NCBI GenBank assembly: GCA_013540605.1
Contig: JABVCK010000029.1
Span: forward strand, 257,022 to 321,021
DNA: 64,000 bases
DNA from: Bacillota bacterium
Lineage (GTDB): Bacteria; Bacillota; Clostridia; Ch29
Direction of reading: 5' to 3'
Positions within the stretch are counted from its first letter, which is position 1, and each line of letters begins with the position of its first letter. Position numbers and translations under genes: made by a program. The notes beneath the pieces were generated by a model. That model was not told where the DNA came from. It saw nothing but the letters and a program-made list of their open reading frames with translations, and did not search any database. Positions 6,445-59,604 of this stretch are shown in pieces.

Positions 6445-7239
6445 TCAATGGAGTGAGGGATTGCCTGTGGTTGGTAAAATACCAACAGTTCCGAAGAATA
6501 CCGTTCGGAAGCTGTTGGTATTTTTATACTGTCTAACGGTTGCTTTCGGGATTTTTGTCTTGTAACAATTTTTCATATTTTCGTAATACCGGATGATAAG
6601 CTTTCCTTGTCTAAGTTGGTCAGGATATTTTGATAAAACAGATTCTAATAAATCCTCTAGGCGGTTCTGACAGTGTGTATTGCCTGGGTCCAAGTAAAGA
6701 GCAATGGCTTCGGAATATTGCCCGGCAAAGGCAGCAGATATTTGATAACCGGTTTTGCCTCTTTTTCTGGGGAAGTATCCTTTATCGGCAAACTCATAGG
6801 TCTTACCACCTGCTATTAGGCCAGACATATCAACATCAACGATGACATCATTATGAGAAGCAGTAGAAAGACTATGTTTGCCAAATAGCTCATTATGAAT
6901 ACTCTGAAGCTGCTTTATGTTTTCCTCACCGGTACGGGTGAGCAGGGTATTAATCTGGGACTGGTCTGGGAAGCGTTCCATACCGAGTAGGTTTGCAGCC
7001 AACTTCTCAGGACCTAATACCTCATTAATGTCTTTGGTAGACTCACAGCCCATGGCTATAGAAGCTATGATAGTAAGTAACTTTTGGTAAACGTAGTATC
7101 TGACTTCCTTCATCTTGAGGCTGAAAGCCTTAAATGGTGCGAAAAAATTAATATCAAGACCAAACTGCAGCACAGATGCCAGCCATGCAGAAGTAGTTTC
7201 CTGGTTGCAATCACTATTTGAAACTGTTATCCTATCCAT
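6445..7239 (-). mobile_element. Truncated DDE transposase. Only the N-terminal roughly 264 aa of an IS4-superfamily (IS1380/IS1634-like) transposase survive, making this an IS remnant.
   Basis: The first-D region reads DVDMSGLIAGGKTYEFADKGYFPRKRGKTGYQISAAFAG...YLDPGNTHCQNRLEDLL. This is the same D...G/K...PGNT architecture as the intact IS1634-like transposase at 12205-13842. The ORF stops after 264 aa. The roughly 130 bp left before the spo0A terminator cannot encode the missing half. Confidence 0.6.
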
Positions 7240-11468: not shown

Positions 11469-12251
11469 TTGAAGAAAGCGAGCATATCCATGGAGAATAT
11501 CAGGCAGGAAATATATATGGCAATTGGAACGTTATGGTCATTTCAGTGTATTTATTTGGGTATCAAGAAACGAAAAGGCAAAAACTTCTACCACGAGCCA
11601 AAACTCATGAACCTTTTACCAACAGGCGGCAGTACACTTCTATTGGTGTACGACTTCATGGAAGCCTGGAAACTGGGTACCGACAGCGTTTCAAATTTTA
11701 ACATTATACTACTTGGAATATTGGTTTTATCGACCGTTTTCGTTGTTTTTAGAAGCTTTTTGGGTGGTAAAAAGTATACGGTCTATAATATTGCCAAAAC
11801 CGACATTGAGGCAATATTGCTGCAGACATTGAAAAAGTATGAACTGGAATGCAAAAAAGAAGAAAAAAATCCCCATTCCATAGTAACCAAGATATTACTA
11901 GAACAATACGATGCTTCTGTAGAAATGACGCAAAGGGGAGGAAGCGGGACCACATTCGATTTGGTATTTGAAAAATTCGACCGGGTATACAATTTTGAAG
12001 ATATAGTTGCGGATATTAAGGAGAGCATTAATGAAAGCACAAAAGTTAGCAGGTTCCGGGGTGTACACGAATTTGCAGCCGCTATTGGAATTGTATTGTT
12101 TTTTGTTTGGATGAGTATTCCTGAGTTTAGGAGAAAAGAGTGCAAAAAACGCTGTGACGCCTTTAGTGGAGGCGTTTCAGCGTTTTTAAAAATGTCCTAT
12201 TTTTTTAAGTTGACGGATAAATCCAGTTTTGTGCTTGCCCGGAATGCGTGA
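11469..12251 (+). pseudogene. Small membrane-protein gene disrupted by IS insertion. Its original C-terminus resumes at 14253-14278.
   Basis: The ORF runs from the gene into the IS end. The last 94 bp before the IS (12015-12108) are repeated after the IS (14159-14252). In the second copy the frame continues into ...IGIVLFFVLFTPTTFS*, which is the native C-terminus. Confidence 0.55.
12015..12108. repeat. 94-bp direct repeat, left copy, flanking the IS1634-like element. It is a long target-site duplication.
   Basis: 94/94 identical to 14159-14252 (attaaggagagcattaatgaaagc...ttgtattgttttttgttt). Confidence 0.85.
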
Positions 12252-14158
12252 GGGTCATATTGCTTTTGAGCAATGGTTGCTTGAGGGTCTCTGCCAAATC
12301 CAGATAAGTTTGTGTGATCCTTGTTGGTGTCACAATGTTGTTTGGAAAATCGCCCTGCACCAGAACCAGGGGTTCCCTTATCGCTTCCATAATCCGGGCC
12401 GCCGAGACACTGATATTCTTCTGCGTTTCCAGGATGTATTGAGCATATCGCAACATACACAGACTGATGAAGCATATTGCAAAATGACCGTGAATGTGGT
12501 CGTCGGTCCATACAAAGACCGGGCGAGCTCGTAAATCGGTCTTTAGAACCCGGAAACTTTCCTCAATCTTCCATAGCCCTCTGTAGATAGTGCTGACCTG
12601 CTCTGTACCCAGAGCAAGATGATTCGTGATGACTGCGTAGTAGCCGTCATACCGGGCAGCAGCCTGGATTTTCTCTTCATCAATAGTCCAGTTTTCGGAG
12701 TCCAGATCCATCTGCAAATACTGATTGCAGCCCCGCCTGATTGCGGCTTTCAGCTGATATGGTTTATCCAACCGCTTCTTCAGCCGCTCAATCATGCGTT
12801 CCCGGTCAGACCGGTCCTTGGCTGCCCGCTTTGCAGACCAGGTCAGATGGATGTTCACCGGAATCTCTTCGGTCCTGTACTTTCTGGGTCGCCCTCTCTT
12901 TTTGTTTTCCTTGTTTTCTTCCGGCGCAACCGGGACTTTGATCTCAATATTCTGCCGAACAATCTTCGACCGAAACGTCACTTCCCCGGTCTCCGGATCC
13001 ACCACATCCTGCCAGTCTTCTTCCTGCCAGACCAGTTCCTTAAAGGCTTCTGGAGACCGTTTAAGCGTGTAACTGATTACAAAGTCATAACCTTCTCCAA
13101 TGAGGTATTCCAGATTGCTTCCGCTGTTGAGACCCCTGTCGGCCACCACGGTAATCCTGTCCAAGCGATACAGGTTCCTGAGATTTTCAACAGACTTTCT
13201 TAGCGTGCTCTGGTCCACCGTGTTTCCAGGAAACAGTTCATAGGTAATGGGAATGCCATTATTATCTAGCAACAGGCCCATGACCACCTGCACCTCGTTA
13301 TTTTTGTGATCCTTTGAAAAGCCGAACATTCTCAGTTCCCCCCAACGGGTACTCTCAAATGCATACGTTGTGACGTCATAGTAGGCTTCCGTGCTGTGGC
13401 GGTCGGTCTTCTTTTCGAAGAAGGTGCACAGATGTCCAATCAGAGCCTCTTTTTGATCCGCCAGGACATCCAGTACATCATAAAAAAGATCCAGACCCAA
13501 AGGTTGAATGCCGGCATAGCGGTGCTGTTCGGATGCACCGGCATGGATGCTTGTGGGACTGGCACAGCGGTGGGCGGCCAGGTAATAAAGGGCCTGGGCC
13601 ACGGCTTGGGCATTACGTTTGCCGCAGTTTTGAATGAAAAACTCATCCAGTGCCATGTGGTTCCACAGTTGTTTCACCAGGGCATGGCCGAAAGCATAAG
13701 AGGGGACAACGTCCTCAGGTAGGGTGATGTCCGCCACCGGAACCTGAAGTGACAGGGGTGCCCTGGATAGTTTTTGTTCCTTCGTGATCCGGGCGGCCTC
13801 TTTTTTTAGTTTCGCTATGATATCCGGGTCTTCGGTCAGCATCCGCTCGTAATTGCCCAGGGTTTTGACGACCCGGGTTTTCTTTTTCTTGGTGCCCGGG
13901 ATGCGGGATCTTCCCGGAACTGGATGACCCGGGCTTTTCCTGAGCCTGTGATGGCAACGTACATAAAACCCTCCTGCGTATTTGTCTATTTGAACTCATT
14001 GTATCATTTCGAGCACCAAAAATCAACAATATAACAGGAAATAACAGGACAAAATATTGAGATAAATTTTGCATCAAAAAAACCCGGGAAACCTGATAGA
14101 TTCAGCATTCTCGGGTGGTACTATTCGTTGTTATTGGCGATTATCTCCTAAAGTCAGG
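12109..14158 (-). mobile_element. IS1634-family insertion sequence, about 2.05 kb
   Basis: It is bounded by the 94-bp direct repeats. Imperfect terminal inverted repeats are CCTGAGTTTAGGAGA (12120-12134) and the reverse complement of TCTCCTAAAGTCAGG (14144-14158). It encodes a 545+ aa DDE transposase. Confidence 0.8.
12205..13842 (-). CDS. IS1634-family DDE transposase. The body is the 545-aa ORF. The first roughly 30 codons are encoded in the 0 frame starting at 13964 (-1 relative to the main ORF).
   Basis: Typical IS1634-family blocks are present: YYDVTTYAFEST...FGFSKDHKNNEVQVVMGLLLDNNGIPITYELFPGNTVDQSTL, ADRGLNSGSNLEYL, and YDGYYAVITNH...WKIEESFRVLKTDL. The upstream ATG at 13964 encodes MYVAITGSGKARVIQFREDP. 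This is the family's MxVxxTxSGK N-terminus. It lies in another frame with no stop between it and the main ORF. Confidence 0.8.
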   Translation of the reverse strand: MLTEDPDIIAKLKKEAARITKEQKLSRAPLSLQVPVADITLPEDVVPSYAFGHALVKQLWNHMALDEFFIQNCGKRNAQAVAQALYYLAAHRCASPTSIHAGASEQHRYAGIQPLGLDLFYDVLDVLADQKEALIGHLCTFFEKKTDRHSTEAYYDVTTYAFESTRWGELRMFGFSKDHKNNEVQVVMGLLLDNNGIPITYELFPGNTVDQSTLRKSVENLRNLYRLDRITVVADRGLNSGSNLEYLIGEGYDFVISYTLKRSPEAFKELVWQEEDWQDVVDPETGEVTFRSKIVRQNIEIKVPVAPEENKENKKRGRPRKYRTEEIPVNIHLTWSAKRAAKDRSDRERMIERLKKRLDKPYQLKAAIRRGCNQYLQMDLDSENWTIDEEKIQAAARYDGYYAVITNHLALGTEQVSTIYRGLWKIEESFRVLKTDLRARPVFVWTDDHIHGHFAICFISLCMLRYAQYILETQKNISVSAARIMEAIREPLVLVQGDFPNNIVTPTRITQTYLDLAETLKQPLLKSNMTLTHSGQAQNWIYPST

Positions 14159-14252
14159 ATTAAGGAGAGCATTAATGAAAGCACAAAAGTTAGCAGGTTC
14201 CGGGGTGTACACGAATTTGCAGCCGCTATTGGAATTGTATTGTTTTTTGTTT
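14159..14252. repeat. 94-bp direct repeat, right copy
   Basis: Identical to 12015-12108. Confidence 0.85.
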
Positions 14253-16204: not shown

Positions 16205-16496
16205 GAATAAAGATTATAAGTAATAATGAAAAGGCTTTGACGAGGAGGAGTATATATCTCCCTGAAGCGCAGAGAGGGGATGAGGGTGGAAATTCCCCGT
16301 GAAGGGTATATAGAAGGTAGCCTCCGAGCCGTGAACCGAAATCTTGTGAGAGTAGACTTCAACGGATTTCCACCGTTACAGGGGAGGTAGTATCGGCATG
16401 TATGCCCGTACTATGTCTGAGTGTGTACATTTGTACGAACCTAGGTGGTACCGCGGAGATTCAAACCTTCGTCCTATACAGGGCGAGGGTTTTTTA
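16205..16496 (+). promoter_or_regulatory. T-box riboswitch leader of valS
   Basis: The conserved T-box sequence AGGTGGTACCGCGG is at 16443-16456. It is followed by terminator stem CCTTCGTCC...GGGCGAGGG plus a T6 run. An AGAGA-containing stem I region lies upstream. The specifier codon is not confidently assigned. Confidence 0.75.
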
Positions 16497-16537
16497 TTGC
16501 GAAGGCCAATATACATAACACAGGGGAGGTATTTTAT

Positions 16538-18955
16538 ATGCTGGAAAAGAAGTATGAATTCAAGGAAATAGAGCCTAAGCTGCAAAAATTCTGGGAAGGG
16601 GAAGGGATATACCATTATGAGCCGGATAGTTCAAAGGGCGTATATTCTATAGATACACCGCCGCCTACGGTAAGCGGGAACCTGCATATAGGCCACATTT
16701 TCTCCTATACCCAGGCTGAAATGATTGCAAGGTTTCACAGAATGCAGGGACAAAACGTGTTTTATCCCTTTGGATTTGACGATAACGGTCTGCCCACAGA
16801 GAGGCTTGTAGAAAAGGAAGAGGGCATAATAGCTCAAGACATGCCAAGGAGTGAGTTTATTAAGAAATGTATGAGTACCACACAAAAATACGAAGCGGAA
16901 TTTAAAGAATTATGGCAATCCCTTGGTTTTAGTATTGATTGGAGTCTTCAATATGAGACTATCAGTCCCCTGGCTCAGAGAATATCTCAAAGGTCATTTT
17001 TGGACCTCGCCAGGAAAGGGAAAGCATATCTGAAGGAAACGCCCGTGTTATGGTGTACCAGCTGCCAGACCTCGATTGCCCAGGCAGAATTGGACTCTTT
17101 AGAGAAAGAAGCTGCTTTTAACTGGATACCGTTTCAGGTTGAAGATGAAGAACTCATAGTTGCAACCACAAGGCCCGAGCTGCTTTGCGGATGCGTTGCT
17201 CTACTCATCCATCCTGAAGATGAACGCTATGTTAAGTATATTGGAAAGGAAGCAATAGTACCGCTGTATGATTTCCCGATACCGATTTTGGGAGATAAAA
17301 AGGTCAGTAAGGAAAAGGGTACCGGTATAGTAATGTGCGCAACCTTTGGCGATACTACGGATTTGGAATGGTATAATGTTTACAGGCTTCCGTACAAGAA
17401 AATCATAAATCCCGATGGAACTATAAGTGATGATGTACCTTTTATTCACGGCCTGAATGTTGGAGAGGCAAGGGAGAAAATAATCAACAAGCTAAGGGAA
17501 GAAGGCCTTTTGAAAAGGAGTGAAAAGATACTCCATACCGTTGCTGTCCATGAAAGATGCGGCAAAGATATTGAAATAATCACTTCAAAGCAGTGGTTTA
17601 TTGATATCCTGAACGATAAGGACAAATTCCTTGATGCTGCTGATAAAATCAACTGGTATCCATCTTCTATGAAGACAAGATATGAAATATGGGTACAGAA
17701 TCTCAAGTGGGACTGGTGCATATCACGGCAAAGATATTTTGGAGTTCCGTTCCCTCTGTGGTACTGCAAGGATTGTGGCTCCATTATATTTGCCAGGGAG
17801 GAGGACCTGCCCGTAAACCCGTTGGAATCTTCGCCAAAAGAGCCGTGCTCCTGCGGGAGCAATAGTTTTATCCCTGAAGATGCGGTCATGGATACATGGG
17901 CAACATCATCATTAACGCCTATGATCAACTCAAAATGGGGAGAAAAGGGAGACGCGAGCCAGAAGCTTTTACCTATGAACATGCGTACACAAGCGCATGA
18001 GATCATTCGTACCTGGGCATTTTACACAATTGTAAAGAGTATATATCATACAGGGCAAATCCCCTGGAAGGATATTATGATTTGCGGCTTTGTAATGGCA
18101 AAGCAGGGAGAAAAAATAAGCAAGTCCAAAAATAATGCCTCATTATCTCCCAAAGCTTTAATCGACAAGTATTCCGCCGACGGTATCAGGTATTGGGCAG
18201 CTAATTCAAAACTTGGAACTGATACAATGTTTTCAGAGGACGAACTACAGACATCAAACAGGTTTTTGACAAAGCTATGGAACGCCGCCAGGTTCAGCGT
18301 GATGCATCTGGGAGATTATCAGAAGCAAAAGGATGTAAAGCTGATGCCGATTGACAGGTGGATTGTGGAAAAATATAAAGATGCGGAAGCAAAAGCAGCG
18401 GCATACCTGGAACAGTATGAGGTCGGTGCTGCACGGTATGAGATTGATGAATTCTTCTGGAAGGATTACTGCGACAACTATCTTGAGATCGTCAAAGAAC
18501 GGCTTTATAAACCTGAAATCCATGGGTATGAGAACAGGCTGTCCGCCCAGTTTGCTCTTTACACCAGTTTCCTTGGCATACTTAAGACGTACGCCATATA
18601 TGTTCCTCATATAGTTGAAGAAATCTATCAGGCATATTTCAGGGAATATGAGGAAACCGCATCCATCCACAAAACCATCTGGAGCAGGGCTGACGAAGCT
18701 GATGAAGATATCCTCCGGTTTGGGGAAACGGTCAAACAGATTTTATTGGAAATAAGAAGATACAAATCAGAGAGAAATCTATCTCTAAAGACCGAGGTGG
18801 ATACTATTCGGATATTCTGCCCGCAGAGCTTTATACCTTTGCTGGAGGAAACAAGGAAGGACCTGCATGCCTGTACCGGGGCCAAAACAATCGAGTTCAG
18901 GGAAGGAGAAGGGCTGGCGGTTATTATTGGCAAGGGAGGATTTTGCTGTTATTGA
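16538..18955 (+). CDS. valS: Valyl-tRNA synthetase, a class I enzyme of 805 aa
   Basis: HIGH region PPPTVSGNLHIGH and KMSKS variant KISKSK. The DTWATSS motif is present. It is shorter than the canonical bacterial ValRS because the C-terminal coiled-coil appears to be missing. Confidence 0.8.
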   Translation: MLEKKYEFKEIEPKLQKFWEGEGIYHYEPDSSKGVYSIDTPPPTVSGNLHIGHIFSYTQAEMIARFHRMQGQNVFYPFGFDDNGLPTERLVEKEEGIIAQDMPRSEFIKKCMSTTQKYEAEFKELWQSLGFSIDWSLQYETISPLAQRISQRSFLDLARKGKAYLKETPVLWCTSCQTSIAQAELDSLEKEAAFNWIPFQVEDEELIVATTRPELLCGCVALLIHPEDERYVKYIGKEAIVPLYDFPIPILGDKKVSKEKGTGIVMCATFGDTTDLEWYNVYRLPYKKIINPDGTISDDVPFIHGLNVGEAREKIINKLREEGLLKRSEKILHTVAVHERCGKDIEIITSKQWFIDILNDKDKFLDAADKINWYPSSMKTRYEIWVQNLKWDWCISRQRYFGVPFPLWYCKDCGSIIFAREEDLPVNPLESSPKEPCSCGSNSFIPEDAVMDTWATSSLTPMINSKWGEKGDASQKLLPMNMRTQAHEIIRTWAFYTIVKSIYHTGQIPWKDIMICGFVMAKQGEKISKSKNNASLSPKALIDKYSADGIRYWAANSKLGTDTMFSEDELQTSNRFLTKLWNAARFSVMHLGDYQKQKDVKLMPIDRWIVEKYKDAEAKAAAYLEQYEVGAARYEIDEFFWKDYCDNYLEIVKERLYKPEIHGYENRLSAQFALYTSFLGILKTYAIYVPHIVEEIYQAYFREYEETASIHKTIWSRADEADEDILRFGETVKQILLEIRRYKSERNLSLKTEVDTIRIFCPQSFIPLLEETRKDLHACTGAKTIEFREGEGLAVIIGKGGFCCY

Positions 18956-40717: not shown

Positions 40718-40752
40718 GAAAAGGCTTTCCTTCGGGAAGGCCTTTTTTTATT
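40718..40752 (+). terminator. Rho-independent terminator after ald
   Basis: AAGGCTTTCC-ttcg-GGAAGGCCTT followed by a T7 run. Confidence 0.8.
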
Positions 40753-40783
40753 GCATAAGAAAGTATGCTTTCTTATGCAATAA
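40748..40783. repeat. Perfect 16-bp inverted repeat (palindrome)
   Basis: TTATTGCATAAGAAAG-tatg-CTTTCTTATGCAATAA, overlapping the ald terminator T-tract. Confidence 0.6.
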
Positions 40784-40828
40784 TGGAGTTAATTAAATTC
40801 ATGATCTATCCGATATAATATATAAGTT

Positions 40829-40967
40829 CTTAGTTGGTAGTTGGTAGTTGGTAGTTCGTAGTTCACAGGCGCCCGGGTTAGGCCTTTGGGGTTTTACCGA
40901 AAAACCTTGCCCTGACGTCTGTCATCTATTAATTGGTAACTATACTCTGGTAACTGGTCACTGAGTG
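40829..40967. repeat. Composite heptamer-repeat intergenic element, copy A
   Basis: The + block reads TAGTTGG x3, TAGTTCG, TAGTTCA, with consensus YAGNNNN. A roughly 48-bp spacer follows. The inverse block reads ...GGTAACTGGTCACTGAG, with consensus NNNNCTR. It fills the whole ald-xerD gap. Confidence 0.7.
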
Positions 40968-41104: not shown

Positions 41105-41992
41105 ATGAATGATCTTCTTGAAAAATTTCTTGTCTACATCAAGGAAGTCAGAAAACTATCGGATAATACGGTGGAGTCTTATGGCCGAGACCTGAGGCAG
41201 TACCTGGAGTACATAGGAAACAAGAGAATTCTCAGCCTCAAGAATACAAACAAAACAACCATTATTACATACCTGCTTTATCTTCAGAAGTTAGGGCGCG
41301 CTACCTCTACAATATCAAGAAATCTTGCTTCCATTCGAGCATTTTACCAGTATCTTGTATCTGAAAGGATTATTGATAGGGATCCCACCATTAACCTGGA
41401 GTCGCCAAAGGTAGAAAAAAAGCTTCCTACAATACTGACAAGCAAGGAGATCGAACTTTTGTTGGAGCAGCCTGATTGCAGCGACAGCAAGGGTATCAGG
41501 GATAAATCGATGCTGGAGTTGTTATACGCTACGGGGATAAGAGTATCCGAACTGGTTGCCCTCAACTACTCGGATGTGAATATAGAACTGGGATATATAA
41601 AGTGCTCTAAGAGCAATGAGAAGGAAAGGGTAATACCCGTAGGAACCATAGCCGTTGAAATGCTCGACAAATATATTAATGACATAAGGCCCTCCATGGT
41701 CAGAGACAAGGCAATAAAGGCACTGTACGTAAACTACCAGGGGAAAAGGCTGACGCGGCAGGGCTTCTGGAAAATTATAAAACACTATACAAACAAGGCA
41801 AAGATAAATAAAGACATAACACCCCATACTTTGCGGCATTCCTTTGCGGCGCATCTGCTGGAAAACGGAGCAGATCTGAAATCTGTACAGGAAATGCTGG
41901 GGCATTCCGATATATCAACAACGCAGATATATACGCAGATTACCAAAAACCGCATCAAAGAAGTATACAAAAAGGCACATCCGAGGGCGTAA
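41105..41992 (+). CDS. xerD: Site-specific tyrosine recombinase XerD
   Basis: Conserved catalytic region HTLRHSFAAHLLENGADLKSVQEMLGHSDISTTQIYTQ. The product is 295 aa. It sits in the conserved position before deoB. Confidence 0.9.
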   Translation: MNDLLEKFLVYIKEVRKLSDNTVESYGRDLRQYLEYIGNKRILSLKNTNKTTIITYLLYLQKLGRATSTISRNLASIRAFYQYLVSERIIDRDPTINLESPKVEKKLPTILTSKEIELLLEQPDCSDSKGIRDKSMLELLYATGIRVSELVALNYSDVNIELGYIKCSKSNEKERVIPVGTIAVEMLDKYINDIRPSMVRDKAIKALYVNYQGKRLTRQGFWKIIKHYTNKAKINKDITPHTLRHSFAAHLLENGADLKSVQEMLGHSDISTTQIYTQITKNRIKEVYKKAHPRA

Positions 41993-42071
41993 AGCCCTTT
42001 TTATTTTTTAACCACATTAAAAGTGGTATAATTTAATAGGGGTATGCCATATATTGGAGACATTCTTTTTA

Positions 42072-42161
42072 TCAGTGACCGGTGACCGGTGACTAGCACC
42101 TAGTACCTGTGATCTGCTAGCTACGGACTACCAACTACCAACTACGAACTACGAACTTAGG
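42072..42161. repeat. Composite heptamer-repeat element, copy B, in inverse orientation relative to copy A
   Basis: CAGTGACCGGTGACCGGTGAC...CTACCAACTACCAACTACGAACTACGAACTTAGG is approximately the reverse complement of copy A. It ends inside the deoB RBS. Confidence 0.7.
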
Positions 42162-42179
42162 AGATGGGAGGGTGAATAT

Positions 42180-47994: not shown

Positions 47995-48126
47995 AAAGGG
48001 GACATTCCGCGGCAAGGAATACATCGGGGACATTCCTCCCCCCCAGAGCTATGCTTCAAAGAGGAGGTGTGTCCCCATAACTTAAAGCAGCGGTGTGTCC
48101 CCTTACATTAATAAGGAGGAATAAGA
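47995..48126 (+). promoter_or_regulatory. Structured trpS leader that is not a T-box. It has nested inverted repeats and an anti-SD.
   Basis: c1 is AAAAGGGGACATTCCGCGG at 47995-48013. c2 is GGGGACATTCCTCC at 48026-48039. c3 is GGAGGTGTGTCCCC at 48063-48076. c4 is GCGGTGTGTCCCCTTACATTAA at 48090-48111. c2 pairs with c3 and c1 pairs with c4. TTCCTCC at 48033-48039 is complementary to the trpS SD AGGAGGA at 48114-48120. No AGGGTGGNACCGCG T-box motif is present. Confidence 0.45.
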
Positions 48127-49113
48127 ATGTCTAAAGGCACAATAATGAGCGGTATGAGACCGACCGGGAAACTGCATCTCGGCAATTATTTCGGAGCCCT
48201 TGAAAACTGGGTAAGGCTGCAGAATGAGTATAGGAGCTATCATGCCATAGTGGATTGGCATGCCCTAACTACCGCTTATGAAGACACAAGCGAGCTTCAG
48301 GATAACATCATGGAAGTGGCTTTAGACTGGCTGAGTGCCGGGCTGGACCCGAACAAATGCACAATATACATCCAGTCCGATGTAAAAGAAATAGCGGAGC
48401 TGTTCCTGCTCCTTTCAATGGTAACCCCGGTATCCTGGCTGGAGAGATGCCCGACTTATAAGGACCAATTGAAGCAGTTGGAAGGGAAAAATATAGCAAA
48501 TTTTGGATTCCTCGGATACCCATGCCTTCAGGCAGCAGATATATTGATTTTTAAAGCCCAGTACGTGCCTGTGGGTGAAGACCAGATACCTCACCTTGAA
48601 CTTAGCAGGGAAATTGCCAGAAGGTTTAATTATCTGTACGGTGAAACGCTTCCGGAACCCGAGGCGCTGCTAACCGAGGCAAAGGTATTGCCCGGCCTTG
48701 ATGGGAGAAAGATGAGCAAGAGCTATAACAATGCAATATACCTGTCGGACAGCGAGGATGAAATAAGAAGCAAGGTTAGTCAAATGATAACCGACCCGCA
48801 GAGGATAACAAAGACCGACCCGGGGAATCCGGACATTTGCTCGGTGTACGCGTTCCATAAGGTCTTTACTGAACTGGCAGACCTGAAAGAAACCGAAGAG
48901 GCCTGCAGGGGAGGAAAAGTAGGGTGTGTTGCCTGCAAAAAAAGGATGGCGGAAAACCTGGTAAAATTCCTGGAACCGATAAGGACTAAAAGGACTGAAC
49001 TGGAAGCCAATCTTGATGATGTAAGGGATATTCTGGACACGGGTGCAAAAAAGGCCAGGGAAGAGGCAAAGATTACGGTTCAAGAGGTTAGGGAAAAAAT
49101 GAACCTTAAATAA
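48127..49113 (+). CDS. trpS: Tryptophanyl-tRNA synthetase
   Basis: HIGH is GKLHLGN. KMSKS is present. The product is 328 aa. Confidence 0.92.
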   Translation: MSKGTIMSGMRPTGKLHLGNYFGALENWVRLQNEYRSYHAIVDWHALTTAYEDTSELQDNIMEVALDWLSAGLDPNKCTIYIQSDVKEIAELFLLLSMVTPVSWLERCPTYKDQLKQLEGKNIANFGFLGYPCLQAADILIFKAQYVPVGEDQIPHLELSREIARRFNYLYGETLPEPEALLTEAKVLPGLDGRKMSKSYNNAIYLSDSEDEIRSKVSQMITDPQRITKTDPGNPDICSVYAFHKVFTELADLKETEEACRGGKVGCVACKKRMAENLVKFLEPIRTKRTELEANLDDVRDILDTGAKKAREEAKITVQEVREKMNLK

Positions 49114-51130: not shown

Positions 51131-51539
51131 GCATCCGATTGAAGCTTTGATGAAAACAACGATGGAGAGTCTCAAAGAGATGGTGGATGTCAATACAATT
51201 GTCGGTGATCCTGTGGAAACCATGGATGGAACTGTAATTGTACCTATATCAAGGGTTGCTTTGGGGTTTGCATCCGGGGGAGGAGAATACCAAAAAAAAG
51301 CGGAGGAAAAAGAGCAAGGAGGCGGAAAGCTGCCCTTTGCCGGGGGAACCGGTGCCGGAGTTTCAGTTCAGCCGGTGGCGTTTATGGTGGTGGGGAAGGA
51401 ACACATAAAGTTGTTACCCGCAAACAGCAGCGGAATGGTCGAAAGGCTCATAGAAATGGCTCCGCAGTTAATAGAGGATTTGCAGAGTTCCTTTAAAAAG
51501 GTAAAAAACAACATGTCAAAATCTGAAACTGAACATTGA
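51123..51539 (+). CDS. ytfJ: YtfJ/GerW-family sporulation protein
   Basis: Glycine-rich GerW-family segments: VIVPISRVALGFASGGG ... GGTGAGVSVQPVAFMVV. Confidence 0.75.
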   Translation: MSEHPIEALMKTTMESLKEMVDVNTIVGDPVETMDGTVIVPISRVALGFASGGGEYQKKAEEKEQGGGKLPFAGGTGAGVSVQPVAFMVVGKEHIKLLPANSSGMVERLIEMAPQLIEDLQSSFKKVKNNMSKSETEH

Positions 51540-51540
51540 T

Positions 51541-51801
51541 ACTAGGTACTAGGTGCTAGGTCCTAGTATTAGTTCGCAGTTCGTAGTTGGTAGTTCGTAG
51601 AACATAGATCGCAGTTCGCAGTACCGTGGTGGAGTTTTCATGTCTTTTCTTTTCCTAGGGCTTCGCTGATGTCTGCCATCTGCCGACTGCCGACTACCAT
51701 CTGACAACTGGTAACTGATATCTGACAACTGATGTCTGACAACTGATGTCTGGCAACTGGTATCTGGCAACTGGCATCTGATAGCTGATCACAGTCACTG
51801 G
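51541..51801. repeat. Composite heptamer-repeat element, copy C, in the same orientation as copy A
   Basis: The first block has 12 tandem heptamers (ACTAGGT, ACTAGGT, GCTAGGT, ... GTAGTTG, GTAGTTC ...). A 40-bp spacer follows. The second block has about 18 tandem inverse heptamers (CAACTGA, TGTCTGA, CAACTGG ...). It fills the whole ytfJ-dacB gap up to the dacB RBS. Confidence 0.75.
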
Positions 51802-51817
51802 CAAGGGAGGTGAAGCG

Positions 51818-52936
51818 TTGAAGAAGTTGATGATGCCCTTTATTGTCCTACTGTCGATGATATACCTGTTTGTACCCTGTCCGGCTGCAGCTTCACAAAC
51901 CCCTAATGCAAAATCAGCCATTTTGATCGATGTTGTATCGGGGAGAGTCCTGTATTCAAAAAACGAAAAGGAAAGGTTGCCGATGGCAAGCACCACCAAG
52001 ATTATGACGGCTATAACAGCCATAGAAAACGGCAGGCTGGACGATGTGGTAACCGCTAGCTTCAGAGCTCAAAATACAGGAGGCTCATCGATCTATTTGC
52101 AGGCCGGAGAAAGGCTTTCCCTTGAAGACCTGCTTTACGGCCTTATGCTTGAGTCCGGAAATGATGCAGCGGTGGCTATTGCGGAGCATATTGGAGGGAG
52201 TATTGAAGGATTTTCCAGGATGATGAACGAGAAAGCCGCTGAAATAGGAGCGTTCAACTCAAGTTTCGCAAACCCTCACGGATTAGATAATCGGGAACAC
52301 TATACAACGGCGGAGGATCTCGGAAAGATAGCTTCCTACGCATTGAGGAACGAGACCTTTTCTACAATTGTTTCAACCAAACAGAAAAAAATACCCTGGT
52401 GGGGAAGGAGCTATAACAGAATTCTCACTAACAAGAACAAGCTTCTTTGGAACTTAGAGGGAGGAGACGGGGTAAAAACCGGTTATACCGGTAATGCCGG
52501 GAGATGCCTGGTTTCTTCGGCAACCCGGGACGGATGGCAGTTGGCCGGTGTTGTCCTTAATTGCGGCCCAATGTGGGAAGAATCTATAAATATGCTTGAA
52601 TACGGATTCAGCACTTACAAACCGGTAACCTATTACGAACAGGGCCAGTTCGTAAAAACTGTAGCGGTAGCAAATGGTAAGAAAGACAGGGTCAGGCTTG
52701 TGACCGACAGGTTGGTCCGGATACCGCTGACTGAGGAAGAAGAAGAAAAAGTCATTGTTGTCGAGGAATGGGAGGATATTCTAAGGGCGCCTGTAAAGGA
52801 AGGGCAGACAGCAGGATCTGTTAGGGTAGAATTGGAAGGCAAGGTGCTGTTCAGGGCAAACCTGATATGTCAGGAAAGCATTAAGGAGAAGAGCTTAAGG
52901 AAATTATTCTTTGAAATCCTTTCAAATGCGATATAA
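51818..52936 (+). CDS. dacB: D-alanyl-D-alanine carboxypeptidase DacB (S11)
   Basis: TTG start after GGGAGGTG. Signal peptide present. SxxK is ASTTK and SxN is SGND. Confidence 0.85.
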   Translation: MKKLMMPFIVLLSMIYLFVPCPAAASQTPNAKSAILIDVVSGRVLYSKNEKERLPMASTTKIMTAITAIENGRLDDVVTASFRAQNTGGSSIYLQAGERLSLEDLLYGLMLESGNDAAVAIAEHIGGSIEGFSRMMNEKAAEIGAFNSSFANPHGLDNREHYTTAEDLGKIASYALRNETFSTIVSTKQKKIPWWGRSYNRILTNKNKLLWNLEGGDGVKTGYTGNAGRCLVSSATRDGWQLAGVVLNCGPMWEESINMLEYGFSTYKPVTYYEQGQFVKTVAVANGKKDRVRLVTDRLVRIPLTEEEEEKVIVVEEWEDILRAPVKEGQTAGSVRVELEGKVLFRANLICQESIKEKSLRKLFFEILSNAI

Positions 52937-52947
52937 GCTAAAAAATA

Positions 52948-53000
52948 AACAGGGGCGGTTCCTAATTTGTGTAAATTGAGAACTGCCCCTGTTTGCCTAT
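52948..53000 (+). terminator. Terminator after dacB
   Basis: AAACAGGGGC...GCCCCTGTTT stem, then a T-rich tail. Confidence 0.55.
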
Positions 53001-53071
53001 TCGCCTCTTTTTGCATTTTTTATTGTAACAAATACCTGAGCAAAAAAATAACCTGATAGTATAGGGCTGAA

Positions 53072-53103
53072 GTGACTCCTATTTCTGCTTAAATAGGAGT
53101 CAC
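53072..53103. repeat. Perfect 13-bp inverted repeat upstream of the flavoprotein pair
   Basis: GTGACTCCTATTT-ctgctt-AAATAGGAGTCAC. Confidence 0.6.
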
Positions 53104-53143
53104 CATTGTTGTTGGAATGGTTATAGTTTCTTAAGGTTAAAAA

Positions 53144-54136
53144 ATGCTGGGGGGAGATGCGGCTTTGGTCAAAAGGAAACTGGAGTGTATAGATGCCGGC
53201 AGCGAATACTGTCCGTGTTATCTGGCTGAAACAAATGAATGCATAACATGCTCTCATTTACAGGGGAAAGAGTTTTGCGACTGCAACTGGAGGGGGGTAT
53301 GCATATATCAGGAATATGTATGGTCGGGATACAAGAGTAAAGGAATACGGTGCACCTGCCGGGCGGCGCTGTTGGAAAAGAAATATTTGTCACCCAATAC
53401 AATCCTGTTCAGGCTTGGTGTCACAAGGACACTTGCCAGAGAATTGGATAATCCCGGAGCCTATATTTTCATCAGAAACGAAGACAAGCCGAGTTATTTT
53501 GACGTGCCGATGTCCGTTATGGCTGTGAATACGGAAGAGAACGAGATATCTGTTGCAATGCAGGTTGTCGGAGCAAAAACAAAGGCTCTGGAGAGCGTTA
53601 GGGAAGGGTTGGTTATCAGAGGTCCTTACTGGAATGGTATACTTGGACAGAGGTACCTGAAAGGAATGAAGGATGGAAACTGTCTCGTTATAGCAAGGGG
53701 GATCGGCCAGGCTCCTGCAGCTAAGGTTGTTAGGTATTTGTGCAGGGGCGACAACCAGGTTAAGATTATAGCCGACCCGGGTAAAGTAGGGACTATATTT
53801 ATCAAAGAGTTCATCGGAAACGCACCCTGTGAGATAGAGGAGTTGGATCTGACTTCAAAGCAGGGACTGAGAATTATAAACAAGTATCTAAAGAACGAAA
53901 AATATGACATTGTGTTCAGCGGCGGATCGGATAAGCAGCACCTTTATATTATTCAGGAAATTGATAAGGTACAAGACAAACCCTACCTTGTGGTAACAAA
54001 CAACAATGAAATCTGCTGCGGCGAAGGAGTATGCGGAAGCTGCTCAACGCGTATCGAAAGCGGGGTACGGGTGAAAGCATGCAAGGTACAGCTTGACGTT
54101 CGAAAAGCAATCGAAAGGAGGATACTAAATGGTTAG
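53144..54136 (+). CDS. PyrK-like FAD/NAD(P)H oxidoreductase with a C-terminal [2Fe-2S] motif and a Cys-rich N-terminal extension
   Basis: FNR-like core (RGPYWNG, CLVIARGIGQAP). The C-terminus has CCGEGVCGSCS. The N-terminal roughly 90 aa contain 10 Cys (CIDAGSEYCPCYLAETNECITCSH...CDCNWRGVC...CTC). Confidence 0.65.
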   Translation: MLGGDAALVKRKLECIDAGSEYCPCYLAETNECITCSHLQGKEFCDCNWRGVCIYQEYVWSGYKSKGIRCTCRAALLEKKYLSPNTILFRLGVTRTLARELDNPGAYIFIRNEDKPSYFDVPMSVMAVNTEENEISVAMQVVGAKTKALESVREGLVIRGPYWNGILGQRYLKGMKDGNCLVIARGIGQAPAAKVVRYLCRGDNQVKIIADPGKVGTIFIKEFIGNAPCEIEELDLTSKQGLRIINKYLKNEKYDIVFSGGSDKQHLYIIQEIDKVQDKPYLVVTNNNEICCGEGVCGSCSTRIESGVRVKACKVQLDVRKAIERRILNG

Positions 54137-58536: not shown

Positions 58537-59415
58537 ATGGCTATGGATACTATCAAGGGTAAACCCGGCTTAATAAATGTGTTTTTGGAAAGCGGCAGGG
58601 ACTATAGTGGATCCAGTGCGGTAATAATAGGGGCACCGATGGATTTCACGGTGAGTTTCAGGGCAGGGTCCCGGTTCGGGCCAAATGCAATCCGAGAGAT
58701 GTCATGGGTACTGGAGAATTACAGCCCGTATATGGACAGGGACTTGAGCAACATGAATATTTTTGATTACGGGGATCTGGAACTGGCCTTCGGCAACCCG
58801 GAGAGGTCCCTATCAATAATTAAGAACGCTGCAGCAGAAGTTTTCAATGATGGTAAATTTCCTGTATTTTTGGGGGGAGAACACCTGATAAGCCTTCCGG
58901 TAATCGAGGCGGCCTTTGAAAAATACGGAGGCGATCTGGTACTGCTTCATTTTGATGCCCATGCAGACCTGCGGGAGGATTACGCAGGGGAAAGCCTTTC
59001 CCATGCCACTGTTATCCGACAGTGCAGCAGGTTTATCAAGCCAGAGAATATTTATCAGTTCGGCATAAGGTCGGGTACCGGCGACGAGTTCACCTGGGGC
59101 CGTGAAAACACCAATTTTTACCCCTTTGAAATAGTTGAACCGTTAAAGAAGGTGCTTCCTGAGATAAAGAATAAACCCGTGTACATAACCCTGGATATAG
59201 ATGTTGTAGACCCGGCCTTCGCCCCCGGTACCGGCACTCCTGAGCCGGGAGGATGTTCGGCGGCGGATATGCTCAAGGCCGTTCACCTGTTAGCGGATTG
59301 CGACGTTAAAGGATTTGACCTGGTAGAGGTTATGCCGGACAGCGATCCGGCAGGGATAACCGGCGCGCTGGCTGCAAAAATAGTCAGGGAAGGCCTGCTT
59401 TCGTTCGTCAAGTAA
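58537..59415 (+). CDS. speB: Agmatinase (ureohydrolase family)
   Basis: HFDAHADLR, SxDxDxxDP (TLDIDVVDPA) and GGxS motifs. speE-speB operon. Confidence 0.88.
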   Translation: MAMDTIKGKPGLINVFLESGRDYSGSSAVIIGAPMDFTVSFRAGSRFGPNAIREMSWVLENYSPYMDRDLSNMNIFDYGDLELAFGNPERSLSIIKNAAAEVFNDGKFPVFLGGEHLISLPVIEAAFEKYGGDLVLLHFDAHADLREDYAGESLSHATVIRQCSRFIKPENIYQFGIRSGTGDEFTWGRENTNFYPFEIVEPLKKVLPEIKNKPVYITLDIDVVDPAFAPGTGTPEPGGCSAADMLKAVHLLADCDVKGFDLVEVMPDSDPAGITGALAAKIVREGLLSFVK

Positions 59416-59416
59416 T

Positions 59417-59604
59417 CAGAGCAGTGGCCAGTGATCAGTGACTAGTGGTCAGTCATCGGTTGACAGATGACAGATGTCAGGGCAAGGCTATAGGGGGTAA
59501 AAATCCAAAGGCCTACCCGGACACCTGTGAACTGTGATCTGTGATCTACGAACTACGAACTATAATCTAACACCTAGTACCTAGCACCTGTAATCTGTTA
59601 TCCT
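59417..59604. repeat. Composite heptamer-repeat element, copy D, in the same orientation as copy B
   Basis: The first block reads CAGTGGC CAGTGAT CAGTGAC TAGTGGT CAGTCAT ... CAGATGA CAGATGT. A spacer follows. The second block reads ...CTGTGAACTGTGATCTGTGATCTACGAACTACGAAC...CACCTAGTACCTAGCACCTG. It fills the speB-ytqB gap. Confidence 0.7.

Follow-up and report, generated by a model that had tools for sequence, protein, structure and literature searches.

Palindromic repeats with heptamer-microsatellite arms in intergenic gaps of an uncultured Clostridia-lineage genome

Four intergenic gaps in a 64,000-nt stretch of the Bacillota bacterium contig JABVCK010000029.1 (the window, that is, the whole stretch of DNA analyzed) are occupied by copies of one repeat, termed elements A, B, C, and D, whose arms are built of tandem 7-nt units. 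These elements probably constitute a lineage-specific, non-autonomous palindromic repeat with heptamer-microsatellite arms, and the evidence fits a repeat that is selfish or neutral better than a dedicated regulator. The roles suggested at first reading, namely a protein-binding array, an RNA processing or stability element, and a recombination hotspot, are candidates. Each copy would consist of a short unique core hairpin between two complementary arms of 7-nt units, comparable to REPINs (hairpin-forming doublets of repetitive extragenic palindromic (REP) sequences) or to MITEs (miniature transposable elements with inverted repeats). Copies would have been dispersed into intergenic DNA by transposition or recombination, as suggested by recurrence of the core at unrelated loci and by filled and empty orthologous gaps. 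The arms would then change fast in place through slipped-strand gain or loss of 7- or 14-nt units and point mutation, as suggested by strains that differ in one unit and by an ortholog that is rearranged. The arms would themselves be an instance of a general, period-dependent and sequence-independent excess of heptamers in prokaryotic non-coding DNA. On the basis of XerD, the organism belongs to an uncultured Bacillota/Clostridia lineage, whose nearest cultured relatives are Thermotalea (70%) and Anaerosolibacter (69%).

A sliding self-match scan of the whole window (42-nt scan window, identity of at least 70%, lags 2–24) gave matches at lags 7, 14, and 21 and at no other lag, all of them within 40804–40880, 42104–42177, 51569–51795, and 59513–59591. 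Shorter scan windows recovered the same four gaps and gave zero matches at lags 5, 6, and 8–11, and Tandem Repeats Finder confined arrays of period 7, 14, or 21 with more than about 2.5 copies to these gaps. The dinucleotide CT is phased at period 7 through 18 consecutive units in C (51666–51786), 11 units in D (59525–59596), and 10 units in B (42093–42157); AG is phased likewise through 7–8 units in A (40825–40868) and in C (51571–51621). No array lies in coding DNA: all are in gaps between long open reading frames (ORFs), and 4 of the 21 window gaps of at least 120 nt bear one. The head-to-tail 7-nt units extend beyond chance length, as in long simple sequence repeats (LSSRs), and the arrays are kept out of coding DNA, as in LSSRs of the type described by Mrázek, 7 not being a multiple of 3. 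The first-pass annotation, made from the sequence alone, had described a dispersed heptamer-repeat family filling four intergenic gaps, to be checked by autocorrelation, and these results bear it out: the period-7 signal is present, it occurs nowhere else in the window, and the blocks are neither single-copy nor common in coding DNA. The elements are also, as proposed, distinct from CRISPR (clustered regularly interspaced short palindromic repeat) arrays, which have repeats of ~24–48 nt and unique spacers of similar size; here the period is 7 nt and spacers are absent. The copy count for this genome covers the 64-kb window plus flanks.

Elements A (40829–40964) and C (51541–51802) are in forward orientation on the + strand, and elements B (42072–42157) and D (59417–59603) on the − strand. 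In A, the left arm (40829–40863) reads (TAGTTGG)x3 TAGTTCG TAGTTCA and is followed by the core hairpin (40864–40923) and a right arm of CTR-phased heptamers (40924–40964) with the terminus GGTCACTGA. The right border of A is exact by gap comparison, in that GTGAATTATTT comes directly after it in relatives. Element C fills the space between the ytfJ stop codon (51537–51539) and the ribosome-binding site (RBS) of the gene for an S11 carboxypeptidase, with a left arm (51541–51622), a diverged center (~51623–51669), and a right arm (51670–51802) that has a 14-nt higher-order period. Element D lies between the agmatinase stop codon (59413–59415) and the RBS of an rRNA methylase gene, with its core at 59469–59529, and B has the same arm vocabulary as the others, lacks the core, and reaches the deoB RBS. 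Unit sequences are highly diverse within and between elements, and recurrent GGG tracts were not found in the arms. Two spurious antisense open frames over C (51549–51770 and 51694–52023) were rejected as coding: they exist only because the antisense of the units lacks stop codons, whole-unit 7-nt indels of the kind seen in A would shift their frame, and one of them overlaps the start of the carboxypeptidase gene.

When aligned as A(+), C(+), B(−), and D(−), the four copies have a common sub-array order, (CTAGGTR)n, (TAGTTSG)n, (CAGATCA/CAGTTCA)n, and the center, followed in all four by (CTGTCAT)n, (CTGGTAA/CAACTGR)n, and a GGTCACTGA-like end. In A, C, and D this appears as a YAG-phased arm and then a CTR-phased arm. 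Elements A and D further have in common a non-repetitive core of ~60 nt, CACAGGYGYCCGGGT(T)AGGCCTTTGG...CCTTGCCCTGACRTCTGTC, and a 19-nt pattern from this core has two matches in the window against 0.04 expected. The four copies are homologous. The bipartite heptamer architecture in two orientations that had been noted at first reading is upheld by this alignment; the spacer of 20–50 bp that had been placed between the blocks is, in A and D, the conserved core of ~60 nt, and it is diverged in C and absent from B.

The core also identifies copies in another organism. A scan of metagenome contigs with the 19-nt core pattern returned six stretches, of which five are true copies from metagenome Ga0067045 and one is a chance match, and nhmmer with the core detected A, D, and the five Ga0067045 copies with E-values of 1e-19 to 1e-23. 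In these five copies, the left arm is (CAGATCA/CAGTTCA)n and the right arm is (ATCTGTC/AACTGGY)n; the arms form true inverted repeats in which each unit has a single C·C mismatch, and the two strands fold about equally well. No shared genes emerged from a tblastx comparison of the window with the Ga0067045 loci, and no transposase was found beside the Ga0067045 copies. A hidden Markov model of the seven cores found no copy among 142 loci from other phyla or viruses, and none of the plasmid or phage records was similar to element A. Relative to genes, the copies occur in both orientations. These observations bear directly on the proposal that the arrays are independent microsatellites, arisen in place by replication slippage without dispersal or a common ancestor. 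Heptamer arrays are generic and sequence-independent, and a unit-length indel separates strains, as that proposal would predict. However, it is contradicted by the core common to A, D, and the five copies of another organism, by the sub-array order common to A–D, and by the complementary arms that flank every core, and is thus very improbable.

Of the nine family copies (A–D and the five Ga0067045 copies, L123–L127), eight each form a single long imperfect hairpin when folded (z-scores relative to dinucleotide shuffles, −1.8 to −5.5), with approximately one mismatch or bulge per 7 nt of stem. The folding energies are −52.7 kcal/mol for the + strand of A (z −3.8; −33.7 for the − strand), −88 kcal/mol for the + strand of C (z −1.9; −69.4 for the − strand), and −57.2 kcal/mol for the − strand of D (z −2.0; −53.1 for the + strand). 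The second block, initially described as "inverse heptamers," is the complementary arm of the first, and the elements, as modeled by folding, are long imperfect palindromes similar to REPs or MITEs. The first-pass statement that they are not REP-like or BIME-like (bacterial interspersed mosaic element) palindromes is therefore incorrect. Like REPs and REPINs, the elements are imperfect palindromes that form hairpins and are dispersed in intergenic DNA; GTAG recurs in every TAGTTSG unit, yet there is no single defined head next to the stem. The arms are inverted repeats. The consensus core structure comprises 24 pairs, two of which have changed on both sides and several of which are disrupted in individual copies; most stem pairs do not vary, and compensatory changes are few. 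Judged from these sequence differences, this is probably the pattern of a young palindromic repeat and not that of an old structured RNA. Membership in a known RNA family was rejected, as no Rfam match overlaps the elements at the gathering score or at E-values up to 1, and the gathering score was reached in the window by a T-box at 16228 alone.

Comparison with related genomes indicates rapid turnover. In relatives with 90, 82, 80, and 78% XerD identity, the order NUDIX–SpoIIM–Ald–XerD–DeoB–Pdp–Dac is kept and A and B are absent. Element A is missing from the orthologous gap in L152–L155, and B is missing from the xerD–deoB gap of the same four loci, where the gaps are 36–166 nt and contain no heptamers. 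In the relative with 90% XerD identity, C is absent from a ytfJ–dac gap of 46 nt and D is absent with an agmatinase–methylase distance of 0 nt (both in L157), and a degenerate array stands in the pdp–dac gap, where the window has none. In L156, the closest relative (87% identity in RluB), the ytfJ–dac gap contains an element with a C-like start whose arrays and center are rearranged beyond alignment. At shorter distances, strains L001 and L002, which are 99.8% identical, have an A that is one TAGTTGG unit short, and a copy of D in L158, a metagenome-assembled genome (MAG), differs by a single base that swaps one core-stem pair between G-U and A-U. No length change was seen in B or D between the strains compared, and exact look-ups of the YtfJ and methylase proteins yielded no further strains. 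The whole-unit change in A between close strains is as expected for LSSRs, and the filled and empty sites among related genomes are as expected for MITEs. The elements are thus gained and lost faster than the surrounding genes and change length in whole units. Short arrays of other composition were also observed, namely CACTGRC units before a terminator at 18742–18855 of L157 and GAACTAC/CAACTAC units at 6476–6718 of L152. Relatives without A–D thus carry their own arrays in other gaps, which indicates that the propensity to form arrays is clade-wide and that individual sites are not conserved.

The elements differ in their relation to transcription units. Elements C and D begin 1–2 nt past a stop codon (of ytfJ and of the agmatinase gene, respectively) and end at the next RBS, that of the S11 D-Ala-D-Ala carboxypeptidase gene for C and that of the rRNA methylase gene for D. 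Terminator-like hairpins with T-runs on the + strand are located 3′ of the alanine dehydrogenase gene (ald) at 40725–40750, upstream of A, and 3′ of xerD at 41983–42009, upstream of B. Between element A and the stop codon before it stands the ald terminator, ~80 nt away from A. Element A stops 140 nt short of the xerD start codon, and the intervening block is kept in relatives, whereas A itself is not. Element B lies after the xerD terminator and a TGGTATAAT box and extends into the deoB RBS. The earlier description of all copies as abutting the upstream stop codon and downstream RBS, and almost certainly co-transcribed with their neighbors, is accordingly retained for C and D and abandoned for A and B, which lie behind terminator-like hairpins in leader or promoter regions. 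C and D are likely to be co-transcribed with their neighbors; for B this is plausible and for A it is doubtful. The neighboring genes are unrelated housekeeping genes with no functional theme: Ald, XerD, and DeoB, YtfJ and S11 peptidase, and agmatinase and rRNA methylase in the window, and NAD synthase and YebC, Obg, EamA, and BlaI/BlaR at the Ga0067045 loci. Between the ald terminator and A there is also a perfect palindrome with 13-bp arms (40751–40781, TTGCATAAGAAAG-TAT-GCTTTCTTATGCAA); its loop and one adjacent base differ in strain L001, where the arms are still complementary, and it is not present in relatives.

In transcribed copies (C, D, and probably B), the RNA would form a long imperfect hairpin between cistrons or in a leader. 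Such a hairpin could act as a barrier to exonucleases, as a substrate for a double-strand-specific RNase, or as a brake on ribosomes finishing the upstream gene; these effects on mRNA would be secondary by-products of a palindromic repeat.

Several observations weigh against this interpretation of the elements as selfish or neutral palindromic DNA. Not every copy is a hairpin: a significant hairpin was not found in B on either strand (z +1.05 and −0.99). Defined termini were not found, and no target-site duplication is visible at the sole exact border, which is the right one of A. In the ~64 kb plus flanks covered, no gene that would mobilize the elements was found, whether a transposase, a RAYT (REP-associated tyrosine transposase), or another, and tblastn with an IS200 TnpA query yielded no match in the window or the other loci compared. 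In addition, the forward strand is the more stable in all nine copies, and in seven of them (A, C, and L123–L127, but not B or D) it is the sense strand of the adjacent gene (one-sided binomial p ~0.09). This strand bias hints at selection or mutation bias at the level of RNA or single strands, neither of which is predicted by purely selfish DNA.

The bias is among the points that would be explained if the elements were dedicated cis-acting RNAs, that is, intercistronic or leader hairpins selected as barriers to 3′ exonucleases that set the half-life of the mRNA, as processing sites of the RNase III type that would uncouple adjacent cistrons, or as brakes on ribosomes that terminate within a few nt of the stem. 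REP elements near stop codons in E. coli have been reported to slow terminating ribosomes. The placement of C and D from stop codon to RBS is consistent with such a role, as are the far better folding of the sense strand of A and C, where the large difference is due to many G-U pairs, and the single polymorphism in the core of D, which keeps its pair. However, B and D are antisense to their genes and B has no fold; A, located between a terminator and the conserved pre-xerD block, may not be transcribed with either gene; the elements are missing from the gaps of relatives despite conserved flanks, and the center of the one ortholog cannot be aligned; and neighboring genes have no common function and covariation is slight. 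The G-U richness of the sense strand could also reflect deamination bias on the non-template strand or the lagging-strand template: GC skew is +0.10 to +0.22 along the whole window, which makes the + strand the lagging-strand template as well as the strand that is usually sense. RNA selection and strand-biased deamination are inseparable on the asymmetry seen here. Dedicated cis-acting RNA is an unlikely explanation of the family.

The phasing of the arms raises a further possibility, that they are arrays of binding sites for a protein that reads nucleic acid in 7-nt steps, for which a HutP-like antiterminator and OB-fold proteins of the cold-shock or S1 type are candidates. The HutP site consists of repeated UAG-N4, in two three-unit clusters within the hut leader that overlap a terminator, with hutP nearby. 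The left arms here, of the form (UAGNNNN)n, keep UAG or CAG in strict phase, in line with such a reader. The window, however, has no hut operon or hutP, no HutP-like gene adjoins any copy, and the neighbors are ald, xerD, deoB, ytfJ, dac, speB, and the methylase gene; a HutP-type site was rejected on these grounds despite the UAG-N4 spacing. Regarding the other candidates, B. subtilis CspB binds heptamer repeats, each heptamer being occupied by one protein, and TAACTGA arrays beside start codons have been proposed as binding sites of S1, Csp, and CsrA (PMC4679880), both of which lend the idea some support. Nonetheless, units vary widely both inside an element and from one element to another, the bystander arrays of other genomes are composed of unrelated units, permuted units occur as often as TAGTTSG such that no sequence is favored, and pairing between the arms would compete with single-strand binding. 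A heptad-reading protein is accordingly improbable.

The arrays were at first not recognized as a described repeat family, which does not hold for their heptamer component: intergenic tandem heptamers, including convergent inverted pairs, have already been published (PMC4679880; PMC4692102; PMC2408588). As summarized in PMC4679880 and PMC4692102, heptanucleotides are the commonest long simple sequence repeats (SSRs) in most prokaryotic genomes, and polymerase slippage has been proposed as their source (Mrázek, 2007). Xanthomonas genomes contain 70–75 inverted pairs of GGGAATC arrays each, in convergent orientation, and Nostoc contains GGGGAYT repeats (Rehm et al., 2015, PMC4692102). Marine Beggiatoaceae, cyanobacteria, and Bacteroidetes have arrays of TAACTGA beside start codons (MacGregor, 2015, PMC4679880), and ttgtcagttgtcagttgtca has 44 copies in Nostoc PCC 7120 (PMC2408588). 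Deletion of heptamer repeats altered the activity of a recO promoter in reporters, with no binding partner identified (preprint 10.1101/2022.06.06.494920). The heptamer component thus belongs to a described class, whereas the present family with its core appears undescribed in this Clostridia lineage.

The Xanthomonas pairs resemble the present elements in having tandem 7-nt units that are mainly intergenic and near gene ends, convergent arrays on opposite strands with the G-rich arm first and a stem-loop capability, and array lengths that differ among related strains. The elements here are thus inverted pairs in the same sense. They differ in that the Xanthomonas and Nostoc units are G-tracts capable of G-quadruplex formation, which the present units are not; in that no conserved unique core between the arms has been described for Xanthomonas, a member of a different phylum; and in that ~83% of positions are kept between two Xanthomonas species, whereas most copies here are missing from relatives. 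Strict short tandemly repeated repetitive (STRR) sequences of heterocystous cyanobacteria have the units CCCCAGT, TTGGTCA, and CAACAGT. Cyanobacterial STRRs and heptamer strings have, like the present family, a 7-nt period and many intergenic loci, and their vocabulary overlaps with CAGTTGT/ACAACTG in the right arm of C. The present elements are not strict STRRs: their units are TAGTTSG, CTAGGTR, CAGATCA, CTGGTAA, CAACTGR, and others, in degenerate mixtures forming two complementary arms around a core, and the host is of the Clostridia type (Bacillota/Clostridia by XerD).

The TAACTGA repeats of Beggiatoaceae are likewise heptamer arrays directly upstream of start codons, with a sense strand that contains stop codons in all frames and a cross-phylum spread. 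A YAGTTNN-type unit has TAACTGA as its reverse complement, and this heptamer is present in C (ggTAACTGAtat). Almost all TAACTGA arrays are single direct repeats of 2–6 copies of the exact unit, with one indirect repeat reported (PMC4679880), whereas the arrays here are paired, degenerate, and longer. REPs, REPINs (Bertels and Rainey, 2011, PMC3116915), and MITEs are, as here, short non-coding intergenic palindromes that occur in both orientations, form hairpins, and vary in presence among relatives; in contrast to them, the arms here are microsatellites and not fixed sequences, and the length is variable (90–260 nt). The two DDE transposase genes of the window have ends unrelated to the elements and were rejected as autonomous partners.

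The first of these genes lies in an insertion sequence (12015–14252) and encodes a 545-aa DDE_Tnp_1 transposase (12205–13842, − strand). Its inverted ends are 22 nt (12116–12137 and 14141–14162), and it is flanked by a perfect 94-bp direct duplication (12015–12108 and 14159–14252) that is unusually long for a target duplication. The second, a 264-aa ORF at 6445–7239 (− strand), matches part of the DDE_Tnp_1_4 profile (positions 50–221 of 435) and is probably a transposase remnant.

The unit sequence of the arms is not peculiar to this lineage. In a scan of one genome per species, the TAGTTSG x3 pattern AGTTSGTAGTTSGTAGTTSG matched at least 118 stretches, against ~9 expected by our own arithmetic with equiprobable bases, and the matches listed span Cyanobacteria, Bacteroidota, Planctomycetota, Acidobacteriota, Patescibacteria, Kiritimatiellae, Chlamydiota, Omnitrophota, and Firmicutes. 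Away from TAGTTSG, the genome loci listed contain 48 exact bystander arrays of period 7 with at least three copies and many different units, compared with 1, 3, 3, 5, and 0 arrays of periods 5, 6, 8, 9, and 10, respectively, in the same scan. In viral contigs, the TAGTTSG pattern occurs at 24 loci and three permutations of its unit at 36, 17, and 14 loci; an octamer control occurs at 2 loci and a hexamer control at at least 120, which is expected, since coding sequence can accommodate hexamers. Since permuted units are about as frequent as TAGTTSG and the octamer is rare, it is the period that is special and not the unit sequence, and TAGTTSG was rejected as a special pan-bacterial motif. TAGTTSG arrays were also seen in contigs labeled as giant-virus MAGs (L141, L143, and L149; in L141 and L149 directly beside an ATG on the opposite strand), which indicates that heptamer arrays are not confined to bacteria.

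Paired arrays have a pronounced polarity. With each TAGTTSG array set forward, a CT-phased period-7 partner of at least three units was sought within 250 nt, and was present downstream of 41 of 100 arrays, compared with 6 upstream (one-sided binomial p ~1e-7); for partners of at least four units, the counts are 25 and 3. Adjacent pairs with TAGTTSG have the order G-rich then C-rich in 30 cases and the reverse in 1, and pairs without TAGTTSG in 17 cases and 3; the genome and viral loci counted (L004–L151) cover many phyla and unrelated units. All four window elements follow this G-rich-first polarity, which applies on both strands given that the element is palindromic, and it agrees with the "convergent orientation" of the Xanthomonas pairs (PMC4692102). 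Candidate explanations of the polarity are selection against exposing C-rich, G-poor RNA to Rho before the partner arm is made, all-frame stop codons in the arm first met by the ribosome, and a bias in the origin of the second arm. A preference of the C/A-rich arm for positions beside start codons is unsupported (10 versus 11 in a rough ORF-based test of single arrays). Adjacency to stop codons differs (42 versus 14) but is confounded, because the arrays themselves end any frame reading into them.

It is conceivable, and in our estimation rather unlikely, that paired heptamer-array hairpins form one overlooked class across bacterial phyla and viruses, with a common mechanism, 7-nt arms, a lineage-specific core, and, on either strand, a G-rich arm that is almost always 5′ and a C-rich arm that is 3′. 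The common mechanism could be a dedicated single-strand nuclease or transposase that acts on hairpins, or universal selection against early C-rich, unstructured Rho-loading RNA. If such a class exists, the window family would be a tractable Firmicute example with a recognizable core. Whatever the mechanism, it must explain why the period prevails over unit sequence and why paired arrays nearly always have the G-rich arm first, and the family offers as handles a traceable unique core, filled and empty orthologous sites, and strain-level unit polymorphism. Elements of this type divide operons by long hairpins, cause breaks in assemblies, and give rise to spurious antisense ORFs, and their recognition improves annotation.

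A second small palindromic repeat family is represented at 47996–48105 of the window, in the leader of the tryptophanyl-tRNA synthetase gene (trpS, at 48127). It consists of two direct copies of GGGGACATTCC followed by two of GGTGTGTCCCC, which form nested hairpins in the interval from a TATAAT-like box to the trpS RBS, and is absent from the corresponding gap of relatives L156 and L157. A degenerate copy at 42054–42066 adjoins element B, and the GGGGACATTCC/GGTGTGTCCCC pair flanks the heptamer element on both sides in L126 and adjoins those in L124 and L127. Elsewhere in the window, the gap 3′ of the carboxypeptidase gene (52937–53143) contains a hairpin, GTGACTCCTAT...ATAGGAGTCAC; this block has no Rfam match and is conserved in L156 and L157, although nearby proteins are 66–87% identical, and the hairpin may serve the gene at 53144 as a leader or operator. 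The T-box leader noted above (16228–16479, 108.8 bits) lies upstream of an 836-aa ORF (16445–18955).

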